A stretch of DNA of 60,633 nucleotides, the filler included, from Sluysia triapertura (taxonomy: Eukaryota), in the NCBI GenBank assembly GCA_046118255.1. It is 5 parts of 5 records of this genome, joined end to end, with 100 filler letters (N's around TTAATTAATTAA, not from the genome) between each part and the next. Parts side by side here need not be neighbours in the genome. Positions count along the whole stretch, not along the records: positions 36,988 to 49,508 come from JBJNIA010101767.1; positions 49,609 to 60,633 come from JBJNIA010189997.1; 3 more parts are not named here. One strand, given 5' to 3'. The notes beneath the pieces are model-generated. The model saw only the letters and a list, made by a program, of their open reading frames with translations. It was not told the origin of the DNA and did no database searches. Shown one piece after another: positions 39,737 to 55,501 of the stretch (position 1 is the first letter of the stretch; every line of letters begins with the position of its first letter). The position numbers were made by a program, and so were the translations under genes.

Positions 39737-40186
39737 TGTAGGGAAATCACACAAAATTCATCGCACCTCATCACATAAAAACATTTCACATGTACACAGA
39801 TTATTAAATAAATTACTAAATTCATTCAAAAAACAAACATAACCATTGAACATAATTATCATGAACTACAGCTATTATTATTACAATTCAAATCGTATTA
39901 AACAATATACATATAATTGTTATTATTATTGTATAATGTGATTATCGAATAATAACTTTTATAATAAATCTCATAATAAAACTTCGTATCAACATCAACA
40001 ATGCCAGTATTAATAAACATAATAACTACGTTATTGTTATCATTATCATTTTTTATTCTTGTTATTAATGTCTTTTTATTTTTTCGTTTTGTTCCACTTT
40101 TTTACATATTTATCCATGTGTTAATTAATCTATAAAGTTTACATTTAATATCTGTTATAAAATTTGTTCTTTTAATAACTCCAACA
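39737..40186 (+). mobile_element. LTR-like repeat family H, longest copy (450 bp, TG...CA)
   Basis: Starts TGTAGGGAAATCACACAAAATTCATC, ends TAACTCCAACA. Homologous to 53349-53432 (-) and 55135-55501 (-). No target duplication seen. Confidence 0.7.
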
Positions 40187-40524
40187 TTTCAACTGGAAAG
40201 TCAATTATTCGAATATTATGATCACAAAAGATATACGCCGATACTTTCTATGGATAATATTACTTTATTGGTTACTGAGAAACAAGATTTGAAAGATTAT
40301 GTTTCTAATAGCTTATAGTCAAATAATTTATTCAATTTACCATCTACAAAGAAGTTTAAAACATATTCTTCCTGATAATGATGTTAAAAATGAGTCGATA
40401 TCGGAATCGAAGAAAGAGGTATCGAGTAGTCTCAGTTTCAATGCGACAAAAACAATTAACATCACAATTTTTCATACAATTTTTCATAATATAATGTACT
40501 TCTTGAGCGTGTCTAGATAATAAA

Positions 40525-41615
40525 TCTTTAATGTACAAAACTGTTCAAGATTCTCAAACAAGAAACAAATTAGCAAATGAACTCATGACTTATCACATTA
40601 AAGTTAACGAAGAAAGTGTAAAGTAGTTATTTTCTAAACCTATCCCACCGCTGATAGATTTGAAGAAAGATATAAATAGTTTTGAGTGTCTTCCGCGAGA
40701 AATCAAAGAAAGTGACACTGAAATGGCAAGATTTGGGATTTATTAAACGTTGGAAAATCAGAGGCCTAGTACTAACCAAATTTATCCTTATGGTTAAGAA
40801 AGGTTATCGAGATCCACCGTATCATAATTGGACGCATGTCTTTACTGTGGCTCATTTTATTTATCTCTGTATTCTAAATTTGAACCTGGAAAAACAATTA
40901 ATCGCATTAGAAATATTTGCTTTGTTTATTGCGTCATTGTACCATGATATTGATCACCGGGATACTAATAATTCTTTTCAGGTGAATTCAAAATCAATTC
41001 TTGCAGCTGTTTTGAAAGGCATCACTTTTCACAAACTGTTTGCATTTTAAACAGCGATGGTTGTAACATTTTGGAAAGTCTTCCTCGACAGGAATATGAG
41101 CGAGTCTTAGATATAATTCGATATATTATTTTGGCTACAGATTTAGCTCAACATCTAAGAATTATTTCCGAACAAAGAGCTATGGTTGAATCAAAATATG
41201 ATTTCAATAATGATGGACACCATGTGTTATTGAGAGATCTGTTAATGACATGTGCAGACTTAAGCGATCAATCTAAAAATGGGAAAAATACAAGGGCCGT
41301 TGTAGAATTGATCTATGAGGAGTTTTTTACGAAAAATCAATTGGTCAAAAACCTGCTGAACAAATGGACAGAGAAAGAGTTTGTGTTCCAAGTTTACAAA
41401 TATCATTTCTTGATGGAATCGCATATCCATGTATCGAAATGTTTGCTAACCTATATCCGGAGCATGGAGCTGGTATGATCGAAAATATACGAAAAAATCG
41501 AATGATTTGGGAAAAGTTAAACCATGATATTAAAAATGGGAAAGTCTGTGCAAATACGTTTCAGTTATTTCATAAGGATATTTCTCCAAGTGGCAGTTTA
41601 ACTTCATTGCAATGA
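40525..41615 (+). pseudogene. PDE2A: Processed (intronless) PDE2A-like phosphodiesterase pseudogene, end of GAF-B through the catalytic domain
   Basis: SLMYK.V.....[80 protein letters not shown]. One in-frame stop, three frameshifting deletions, no introns. Confidence 0.92.
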
Positions 41616-42872
41616 TTTTTCCTAATTATTATTTATCTTGTAAAGAACTTGCTAAACACACCATTATATGACCAATTCTATTTTGATAAACTTCAAATAT
41701 ACCAATAATTAAATGACAATCAAAAATCTAGTAGTTTAAAGGAATAATTATTTATAATTATTTTTTGAATTTAACATAATTTAGTTTCAAAGTATTTAAA
41801 TTATAACAATATTTTGTTTTGAAAATTTATTCAAAATTAGCAATTTCAATTTGTTAAATTTTATTTTTAAATACTTAAAAATTATTTAAATACTTAAAAA
41901 ATGTTGATTTTTATCAAAAAGTAACAATAAATTTATTAAATAGTAAAATAAAATGAAATATATTCGTTGTAAATTTAAAAAAACGCTGAAACAATAACAG
42001 TAATTTGAAACTGAATTTAGTATTGGGTATATTTTAAATATTTATTTACTTTTAGTATTTTATGTATGTTCCAGATTTATTTTTAATTTGTAACATAAAT
42101 TAAAGTTACACAAACTTAAAAAATAAAAAATAAATTTATATTAAAAGAATCAATAATTATGGAATTTCTTTAATTATGAAGACAGTACACATTTTAGTTT
42201 TGATTGTCGTAATAACGACTAGTACAGCGATTTATGTTTCTTATTCATTTAAATGATCGAATTCTATTAAATCTCTATTGATCAAAAAGGTAATGACAAT
42301 CCATCATTTAGTAAATCATGTTATAAAAATTTGTTACTAAGATGTGACATTTTGTCGAATTATCTGAAGTGTAATATAAGTACTATGAAACGAAAATTAA
42401 GAATTTGGCTAGGTATGGTATCATGTTGGCAAGCTACCTTAATCATTGTCACAAATAAATCCAATTATTCGCTTGCTTTATTTAATCAATTAACAACATA
42501 ATTATTATCCGTGATTTGTTTAACAATTATGCCCATGATAGACAATTATAAAAAGAGTACTTTTTTTATTTTTATTTCCCGTTGTGTTTGCAATAGTGAT
42601 TCAACTGTTACGTATTTTATTGTCAGATCTTATTGTTTTATAAATAAAATATCAAATTTTGTAGTTTATTTAAATTCTTTACTTTTTAAAGGCACTAGGC
42701 CTAATTTGTTGACAAAAAAATTTGTTTTTTATTAATTGTTTTAAAATTAAAATTCGATTCTTTGTTGTTAATTAAATTGTTAAATTTTTTAACTAAAACA
42801 TTAAAAATAAACAAAAATATTAATAGTATATCTAAATTAAATTATTCATTGCCATCCACACACTCATAATTC

Positions 42873-42901
42873 TATGGCACTTTAGGCCTGTACCCCAACA
42901 C
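42873..42901. repeat. Third copy of the ATGGCACTTTAGGCCTGTACCCCAACA motif (end of the tRNA-derived repeat)
   Basis: Matches 5947-5974 and 38343-38369. Confidence 0.7.
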
Positions 42902-53570: not shown

Positions 53571-53930
53571 TTAAAAATAAATAAGGTTGAATTTTATATT
53601 AACAAGGATAAAAATTATAAAAATATAAATAACGTTAATAAATGAATAACGTGAGATGTTACCATCCATAATTATCGTGCTACTTACATCGAATAAAACT
53701 GCTGATGATTTTTCAGTTTCACCAATTAAAGTAAAATTTTCATCAGTAATATTTCCAAAAATTCGAAAAATAAATAAATCGACTGAGCAAAGGAGTACTG
53801 TTTTGTGATTCCTCCACTTTATTACACGATTCATTTCTTTACTCGAATCGTGGGCCTCATTGATCCAATGCGTGAAATAGTCACTTATTTCATAACCATT
53901 ATTACAATTATTAGTATCAAGCCCGATCAC
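53571..53930 (-). pseudogene. Unidentified coding-like fragment
   Basis: 119-aa ORF with protein-like composition in the first ~95 aa; no recognised motif. Confidence 0.25.
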
Positions 53931-54728
53931 AACTGATTGATAACAAAATTAAACAGATAAATAGAACGTAAAGATAGTATTTACAATTCTTTTGCACATG
54001 TTTGAGACGTAATATAATTTTCATAATTTGACTAACATTTATAGCAGAAATAAATAAAATTAGTCTCTTTTGAAAAAAATCGATAAAAAATATTTTTATT
54101 TAATTATTAGTTTATTTTTCCTTTATTTTATATTTCCAGGTACTATGGCGACATCGAAATTGGCAATAACATTGGTGATGGTAATAGAATATGAAAGTAG
54201 TAGGAACACTAGTAGTAACAGTAGTAGATGTTTCTAAATTCATAAATCATAAATATTATTTGGGTAAAATTTGATATAATGAATATGAAAAATATTTCAT
54301 GAAATTGTAAATTATAAGTCCAGTGGGGAAGTTCAAAAAAATACATTTAGTTATAATTAAATAATTTAATTTATGTAGCGTAACCAATAAATCTTTTAAC
54401 ACATCAATTTGTTGTTTACTTGAATCACTTAAACTAAAGAAATCAGTGTTAAATTGAGTCAAATATGTATTTCTGAATTCATAATACAATTTGAATAAAT
54501 TCCATTTAATTCTGAGTTAAGTTTCAATATTTTATCATTTATAATTTTAATATCACTTTCTAAATTGTTTAAAGTCATTAAAATAGAATAAAAATTTTTT
54601 ATTGCTGTTCTAATTTCTTTTGTACTAGTATATTTTTTGTTTTCACATTTTGCCGAAGATAGAGAACAGAACAGATTAAATTATGTTCATTAATAAATGA
54701 CACAATTATTAAAACTACCGGTTTAAAT

Positions 54729-55110
54729 TTATTGACTAATTATATTAATATTTTGTTTCATTTGAAAAACCTCATCCTTGTCCTTGATTTTCCGCCACGG
54801 TAATTGCCTAACGAGCATTTCAATAAGCATATATAATATACTCCACAGATCATTGTGACGATCAAGTTCTTTATTAAGATGTGCATTCGGACTAGCATAT
54901 CGAACTGTGACTCTAAATCTTGCTACTAATCGTGCGGTACGCATTTCACCATCATTTGTCAAATATTGGCGAGCACTTGATAATCAACTCATAGCAAAAT
55001 TAGAAGGCCTAATATCACAATGTAAAAAAACTTCGTGAACATTGCGAATACAAACTAATATTTGTCGAGCCAGGTGTAGTGTTGTCGAAATTGAAAATGT
55101 ACCACGTTCT
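54729..55110 (-). pseudogene. TTBK: Tau-tubulin kinase (TTBK/Asator) kinase-domain fragment, inactivated
   Basis: [63 protein letters not shown]. In-frame TGA; the DFG-containing segment is deleted. Confidence 0.9.
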
Positions 55111-55134
55111 AAAGAAATCATGGCCAGATAAACA

Positions 55135-55501
55135 GCACATAAATAAATTGAACAGATTCACTCATACACAAATATGTACAGATTCAGACAAACAAAAGAA
55201 TAAGAAGAAAGGTTGAACATAACTATAAAAGAAATAATATTAATAACAATAACGTAATTATTATATATTTTAAAGCAATGATGCTGATGATGTTGTGGTG
55301 TTATTATTAAAGTTATTATGCGAAATTATAAGAATTATTAATATGATTAGATTTGTATAAACAATAACTATAGTTCATAACAATTATATGCAATGGTTAT
55401 GTTTGTTATTTGAATGAGTCAAGTAGTTCGTTTAATGTTTTATGTATGTAAGAGATGTTTTATGCGATGAAATGTTGAAATTTTGATATGATTTCCCTAC
55501 A
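55135..55501 (-). mobile_element. LTR-like repeat family H, diverged copy 5' of the TTBK fragment
   Basis: Reverse complement TGTAGGGAAATCATATCAAAATTTC...CATTCAAATAACAAACATAACCATTG...ATGAACTATAG...TACGTTATTGTTAT is colinear with 39737-40130. Confidence 0.8.

Follow-up and report, generated by a model that had tools for sequence, protein, structure and literature searches.

The window analysed here, a 60,633-nucleotide stretch of the Sluysia triapertura genome (assembly GCA_046118255.1), is made up of five contigs joined by N spacers and has about 25% G+C. It contains three copies of a mobile unit with two defined ends, H on the left and T on the right, which are unlike each other but each common to all copies. 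Between them lie decayed pieces of host genes: PDE2 in unit 1, the kinase TTBK in unit 2 and KANK in unit 3 (Table 1). We conclude that the feature is real and non-random, and that it is a unit that captures mRNA. An RNA intermediate of some kind is highly probable. With about even confidence, we propose that the mRNA pieces were captured inside a single unit resembling a long terminal repeat (LTR) by reverse-transcriptase strand transfer, and that the units were left as solo LTRs.

Table 1. Features of the three units (positions along the whole window).
Feature	Position	Strand	Remarks
Unit 1, 3,124 bp	39737..42860	+	H1, repeated coding-like spacer, PDE2, AT-rich stretch, coding-like piece, T1
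H1, left end	39737..40120	+	A/C-rich head, T-rich tail; starts TGTAG; putatively U3-like
Spacer	40136..40517	+	two frames of coding-like character; repeated in its own right (about 70-900-fold); Pfam and PDB gave no credible match
PDE2 fragment	40525..41612	+	decayed, intronless, 5'-truncated, reaches C-terminus; split into four frame segments, with one stop inside
Coding-like piece between PDE2 and T1	42190..42566	+	start approximate; from codon score; no credible Pfam match
T1, right end	42567..42860	+	AATAAA; shared 14-base near-palindrome at 42690; ends CCACA; putatively R/U5-like
Unit 2, 2,066 bp	53436..55501	-	H3, TTBK, coding-like pieces, T3
H3, left end, about 345 bp	55157..55501	-	starts TGTAG
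TTBK kinase fragment	54732..55115	-	decayed, intronless, cut at both ends, internal deletion
Coding-like pieces	53650..54680	-	54260-54680 and 53650-53948, in unit sense; no credible Pfam match
T3, right end	53436..53650	-	ends CCCCACA, 3 bp before H2
Unit 3, 1,584 bp	51849..53432	-	H2, KANK, further piece, T2
H2, left end	53350..53432	-	cut after about 75-83 bp; starts TGTGG
KANK ankyrin-region fragment	52678..53347	-	decayed, intronless, 5'-truncated, reaches stop codon
T2, right end	51849..52098	-	AATAAA; shared near-palindrome 51982-51995; ends CAACA

An earlier note on this DNA had reported H at three sites with a common start. Self-comparison recovered the same three copies, on two of the five contigs, and nhmmer found no fourth copy in the window. 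All copies begin at one TGT(A)GGGAAATCA end. H1 and H3 are 68% alike over 359 columns, and H1 and H2 93% over 72 columns. The length of H that is retained varies between the units, at about 80 bp in unit 3, 345 bp in unit 2 and at least 385 bp in unit 1. The earlier note also described H1 as a full 450-bp TG..CA copy, and this part did not hold: the homology between H1 and H3 is significant only up to about H1 position 385 (40120), past which 23-87% of window segments do equally well, a 60-codon open frame (40136-40315) spans the proposed LTR end at 40186, and CCAACA, the motif read as that end, is present 28 times in the window. An alignment of H1 and H3 that seemed to continue into the spacer and TTBK was dropped. 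A 24-base H motif had no matches in viral, metagenome and prokaryote collections. In the window, Rfam gave no hit at the gathering threshold and one chance-level match near H1, and a tRNA search with ARAGORN returned none.

The right end T was discovered by comparing the three regions downstream of the gene fragments. It is about 215-295 bp long and closes all three H loci in the same orientation as H. Two of its pairwise alignments reach 65% over 219 columns (E 5e-11) and 75% over 69 columns (E 5e-6), and the pairwise alignments begin within about 30 bp of one another. In no case did any of 400 shuffles reach the pair score (154, 83 and 100); for window segments the tallies were 0, 2 and 0 of 400, respectively. 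A profile built from T recovers exactly these three copies in the window, the next match having an E value of 1.4. Two of the three T copies carry AATAAA at the same position, followed by T-rich sequence, a weak sign given the 443 AATAAA in the window. The shared 14-base near-palindrome, which sits about 105-160 bp before the unit end, has three matches in the window vs. none in 100 shuffles, a count that carries no independent weight, the motif having been derived from these same copies. H and T differ in sequence, neither being a repeat of the other apart from a marginal T-rich resemblance treated below, and a search with the T profile leaves H unmatched; neither H nor T matched any of 80 fetched loci.

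The pattern TGTNR is read inward at all six unit ends, where the inverted match extends over just 5-9 bp. These are TG...CA termini with a short inverted match, as a solo LTR would have, and TGTNR is the pattern of most Gypsy LTR termini (PMC2836005). Long terminal inverted repeats (TIRs), of about 40 bp or more, are absent from the unit ends, and an earlier idea of two long TIRs, inferred from a 2:1 depth step in H, was abandoned since T is unlike H. Helitrons are defined by a 5' TC and a 3' CTRR that follows a GC-rich hairpin; the units end in TGT and ACA, with the near-palindrome far from the end, and this class was rejected. Units 2 and 3 lie head-to-tail, 3 bp apart, with a short hairpin across the 53436-53432 junction, which could have arisen by insertion beside a copy already in place or from two cDNA ends that were joined. 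Another repeat, at 5882-5974, 38286-38368 and 42864-42900, has a right end with a T-like near-palindrome and ends in CCAACA; it may represent a related family's right end, and its cut copy begins 4 bp after T1.

The discovery of T changes several statements of the earlier note. That note had found no 3' LTR, primer-binding site (PBS), polypurine tract (PPT) or target duplication, and neither the first three nor a clean target duplication came to light here either, while the shared 3' end had been overlooked. It proposed that H forms the 5' end of a mobile unit repeatedly taking up processed host sequence at variable points, and this is strengthened by the shared T and by the depth gradient described below. 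The idea that H is an LTR which lost its 3' twin gives way to one in which H is the left part of a unit and T its different right part. LTR-retrotransposon identity and capture by template switching are what we still infer.

H and T pair one to one in all three cases, on the same strand, and the window holds no unpaired H or T. The earlier note allowed that the association of H with gene fragments in all three cases might be expected by chance if H is abundant enough. In the window, the probability that three random H starts would each have a sense fragment just downstream is 1e-6 to 7e-4, the higher figure assuming 15 coding-like pieces and 800 bp. For three T copies each to fall in sense within 3.2 kb behind an H, the probability is about 5e-4. 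It should be noted that the window was picked after the fact, so the chance of adjacency alone is not relied upon. A coincidence, with H and T as unrelated common repeats that by chance border old processed pseudogenes, would be favoured by the very high abundance of H, by the richness of the window in decayed coding-like pieces and by the post hoc choice of this window from many. The adjacency figures, the same-strand pairing with T, the lack of unpaired ends in 60 kb and the gene parts that stop at H with none beyond it all argue against such a coincidence, which we regard as highly improbable.

The gene identities given in the earlier note are borne out. For the PDE2 fragment the best PDB match is PDE2A (E 4e-37, vs. 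1e-17 for PDE10A), and its best matches are flatworm proteins at 61% identity (23 matches of 255 candidates), which, as far as one pseudogene can show, makes a flatworm the likely host. TTBK1 or TTBK2 accounts for 8 of 8 matches for both frames of the kinase piece, and homologues of the third fragment are named KANK or carry a KN motif (3 of 8 scanned). A search for longer KANK homologues gave three unnamed ankyrin proteins, which were not used. The fragments are all in sense with H, contain stops or frameshifts, and are collinear with their homologues with no room for introns: 363 codons correspond to 388 homologue residues in PDE2 and 189 codons to 191 residues in KANK. Among 6 of 80 fetched loci, two PDE2-like ones from other organisms have introns and are interrupted close to homologue residues 111-114 and 310; at both sites the PDE2 fragment in the window is uninterrupted. 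A DDX19-like gene in the window retains its GT-AG introns.

The missing 5' gene parts are not found 5' of H, as the earlier note had also observed. No GAF domain was matched near H1 with any of five PDE2 homologues, 17 of 17 KANK-like homologues match only 52699-53347, and kinase N-lobe motifs gave nothing at the relevant place in the fifth contig and one stray LRME match. The KANK fragment starts immediately after a conserved WF motif.

The earlier note counted one captured fragment per copy, and in this respect it has to be revised, as each unit holds several coding-like pieces, most of which favour the unit strand under a weak codon model trained on only 1,033 window codons. With that model the unit strand is favoured in 3 of 4 overlapping windows at 42190-42566 and scores higher in 10 of 11 at 53650-54730, and scores are mixed for the piece behind KANK. 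Within the spacer, 40293-40517 gave a weak seven-transmembrane (7TM) receptor lead, with a score of 0.84, below the level counted as more than a lead.

Intronless, 5'-truncated fragments fused in sense to a fixed 5' sequence could also be chimeric retrocopies made by a long interspersed nuclear element (LINE), in which reverse transcription switches to an abundant H RNA, as with U6/L1 or the fungal WEIRD elements. A fixed 5' end, sense fusion and a 5'-truncated partner are listed features of such chimeras (PMC2104539), U6-L1 and WEIRD-MGL being of this kind, and the PDE2 and KANK pieces do reach stop codons. In contrast to these chimeras, the units have no poly(A) tail (the longest A run within 900 bp is 7) and no 10-20 bp LINE-type target duplication or long direct repeats at their ends; their 5' part varies in length rather than being full-length, the TTBK piece is truncated on either side, and every unit closes in the common T with its inverted TG...CA-type terminus. 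We consider a LINE origin very unlikely.

To gain an impression of abundance, we used the contigs of the one public run listed as containing the region (share 0.38; no RNA run was listed as containing it), aligned to 39500-41900 at 80% likeness, which gave 4,229 contigs. The run may be the source sample and is not independent support. Summed contig depth is a rough guide to abundance and not a copy number, and AT-rich parts may attract unrelated contigs. Against a baseline of about 15 for two exact single-locus contigs, the summed depth is about 13,400-fold at 39743-39904, then 8,400 and 6,600 up to 40066; it drops to about 150-fold at 40067-40147 and rises again to 900. From left to right the spacer shows 900, 350, 150, 70 and 80-fold, and the PDE2 part 7-26-fold. 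Roughly interpreted, these figures make H a very high-copy family, with the spacer repeated in its own right and PDE2-like sequence present in several diverged copies. A depth that falls from H through the spacer to PDE2 is expected if cargo-bearing units were re-amplified. One run contig has 17 extra letters at 40726, where the window copy of PDE2 shifts frame, and no GT-AG joint inside PDE2 is present among the 15 of 21 run-contig joints listed. Directly 5' of H1 lies a 160-bp repeat (39572-39734) of about 60-fold summed depth, whose ends are conserved and whose middle is variable in other contigs.

The abundance of H, roughly 1e4-fold, would suit MITE-like families (MITE, miniature inverted-repeat transposable element), and brings in another explanation, in which a non-autonomous Pack-type DNA transposon with very short inverted ends, moved by a Ginger- or IS481-like integrase, has H and T as its two subterminal arms, with cargo entering by gap repair from cDNA or existing retrocopies. 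Such elements usually take the form of a single unit whose two ends differ and whose termini are inverted. Pack-MULEs and Pack-TIRs (PMC8277862, PMC13317346) are, like the units here, non-autonomous with conserved ends, variable host fragments and multicopy subfamilies, and Pack-TIRs occur in animals (PMC8277862). Furthermore, TGT...ACA ends are known in Ginger (PMC2836005) and IS481EU (PMC10045372) elements, the TGTNR termini of Ginger1 and Ginger2 being the same as those seen here. However, Pack elements have long TIRs and cargo taken at the DNA level, which does not predict intronless sense cargo in all three units, and intronless captures were removed from the PMC8277862 set. The inverted match of 5-9 bp compares with TIRs of 40-270 bp in Ginger1 and about 50-180 bp or more in Ginger2, and neither TIRs of at least 40 bp nor the 4-5 bp target duplications of these elements (PMC2836005) are present at the units; the long TIRs of IS481EU (PMC10045372) are likewise absent. 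No transposase tied to the unit ends was found in the window. On this evidence we judge a Pack-type transposon unlikely.

Capture inside a single LTR-like unit, the reading we favour, would proceed as follows, with T corresponding to the R-U5 segments of an LTR and H to its U3. During LTR reverse transcription, first-strand cDNA moves from the 5' to the 3' RNA end through R (PMC6894440). Here, the initial stretch of cDNA (U5-R) would settle on an mRNA packaged with the element rather than on the element's 3' R. The mRNA would be copied partly toward its 5' end, perhaps with a further jump, before the cDNA rejoins the element RNA at a variable point in U3, giving U3'-mRNA-R-U5, a product with a fixed right junction and a variable left one. 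Plus-strand synthesis would then place the cargo in both LTRs, daughters would inherit it and add more pieces, and LTR-LTR recombination would leave single (solo) units. A fixed R start and a variable U3 re-entry predict what is seen in the three units, T starts that nearly coincide and H copies that stop at about 80, 345 and at least 385 bp. A broader version, in which a family of thousands of single-LTR units routinely captures spliced mRNA at first strand transfer and inherits and stacks the pieces, we put forward only tentatively.

These T starts also bear on a more conventional origin, namely retrocopies with the classical order of 5' LTR, cargo and 3' LTR, in which the left LTR later suffered a deletion on its 3' side and the right LTR one on its 5' side. 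Retrocopies of that order, with partial and multi-gene cargo, are known from flies, mosquito, fish, chicken and mammals (PMC5131818), the fragments in the window do bear deletions, and there is a marginal likeness of the H tail to the start of T (9-18 of 400 controls in four of six pairs, none in two). Against this, the two complementary deletions would be required in three of three units, with no clear duplicated sequence left and with T starts that fall within about 30 bp of one another. We think such trimming quite unlikely.

Several observations weigh against capture within a single LTR-like unit. A clean target-site duplication was found at none of the three units: the flanks of unit 1 agree in 4 of 5 letters if the end is shifted by 2, letters which may belong to the neighbouring repeat, unit 2 shows 3 of 5 and unit 3 none, in copies that are old and of which two abut. 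An empty-site test for unit 1 failed, as its downstream flank matches another repeat and its upstream flank is not continuous with that repeat (158-310 of 500 shuffles). The window shows no PBS, PPT, paired unit copy or autonomous partner, and neither parent genes nor junction microhomology were seen. The overlap of H tail and T start that an R duplication should produce is only the marginal, T-rich likeness given above, which the T profile misses in H, and such a duplication was not established. H1 and H2 are 93% alike but T1 and T2 agree in 185 of 248 aligned letters, so recombination between separate insertions may have supplied the ends of units 1 and 3. The signs pointing to U3, R and U5 roles are indirect. 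The dip to about 150-fold at 40067-40147 interrupts a depth gradient that is no copy number in any case, and the depth alignment covers 39500-41900 only, with T and units 2 and 3 outside it. Finally, the units number just three. About 1.4 kb behind unit 1, an A/C-rich decayed stretch (44275-45900) shares the strand and base bias of H. By eye, it bears a likeness to a gag motif of Gypsy elements and to the final part of an RNase H domain; this Gypsy-like remnant had no match in Pfam or PDB.

The system works like known LTR-mediated retroposition, while its architecture differs. That process yields partial, multi-gene and re-amplified retrocopies, at 3 to 15 loci per species examined (PMC5131818). 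As in the window, its cargo (including that of maize Bs1, as cited there) is partial, intronless and in sense, with more than one piece per locus, it lacks poly(A) and LINE-type target duplications, and it shows signs of later re-amplification (PMC5131818). Intronless partial mRNA copies with element sequence on both sides are also what the three units contain. What they do not contain are the 5' and 3' LTR direct repeats that mark LTR retrocopies; in the published cases the cargo replaces internal open reading frame sequence between the two LTRs (PMC5131818), whereas here the flanks differ, no duplicated LTR is present, the cargo apparently lies inside one LTR-like unit, and one junction is about 80 bp from the terminus. 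Flatworms are not among the species named in the sections of PMC5131818 consulted, and a single-LTR case is possible among its supplementary loci. In literature on flatworm retrocopies and mRNA capture inside solo LTRs, this architecture was absent from the titles and opening lines of abstracts among the matches listed, a coverage with few subscription papers.

Other systems share single aspects of the units. In BARE-2 and in Veju, a terminal-repeat retrotransposon in miniature (TRIM), foreign sequence likewise enters at strand transfer, in BARE-2 into the LTR region (PMC13317346). The BARE-2 donor is another retrotransposon and the Veju donor unknown DNA, both in plants and as single founding events (PMC13317346), whereas the donors here are spliced host mRNAs that differ from unit to unit. 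The giant Gypsy elements called Burro, from planarians, are high-copy LTR elements with host-like domains in flatworms (PMC6431247), to which the best PDE2 matches here also belong. By description, with which alone we compared them, the Burro domains lie within the intact polyprotein of a 30-kb element (PMC6431247), whereas the cargo here is decayed and carried by units of 1.6-3.1 kb.

Capture of mRNA by LTR elements is already known in animals, at few loci per genome and with an LTR on either side of the cargo. That 60 kb hold three independent captures, within one high-copy unit whose two ends differ, suggests that capture is much more frequent here and enters at another point. Should this hold across the genome, thousands of junctions would form a natural record of first-strand transfers gone astray and of co-packaged mRNAs. 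The units would then be a routine shuffler of gene pieces and a source of exon shuffling and pseudogene load in the lineage, as well as a warning for gene annotation. The LTR would serve as a cargo bay, making the system an RNA-based counterpart of Pack-MULEs.

The window contains further decayed coding-like sequence. At 56490-58400 on the minus strand, about 1.9 kb of it, intronless, lies behind an A/C-rich stretch (58700-59450) with no H or T; it might be a transposon gene in decay or cargo belonging to some other family, and its weak matches to haemagglutinin stalks (E 4e-4 at best) were taken as coiled-coil likeness. Three short pieces end at a GT donor: an exon-like piece of an NAD-binding oxidoreductase (38963-39166, minus strand), 570 bp upstream of H1 and on the opposite strand, a frameshifted Unkempt-like zinc finger with no H (59743-60128, minus strand; Pfam E 7e-4), and a frameshifted MBD2/3-like stretch, also with no H, recognized by eye only and with no PDB match (48370-48520, plus strand). 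Host genes or pieces of them are present at 13121-18907 (the DDX19-like DEAD-box helicase), 36203-36433 (an RSE1/SF3B3-like exon) and 36531-36880 (an ELM2 domain).

Among the remaining repeats, a small piggyBac-like MITE with inverted CCCTT ends and TTAA flanks was recognized by eye at 38128-38212. Beside the CCAACA-ending repeat, 38230-38303 on the minus strand has by eye a tRNA-like head, which ARAGORN did not call. A 276-bp inverted pair of 97% identity (1833-2108 and 3174-3448) surrounds an assembly gap and probably represents the TIRs of a DNA transposon.

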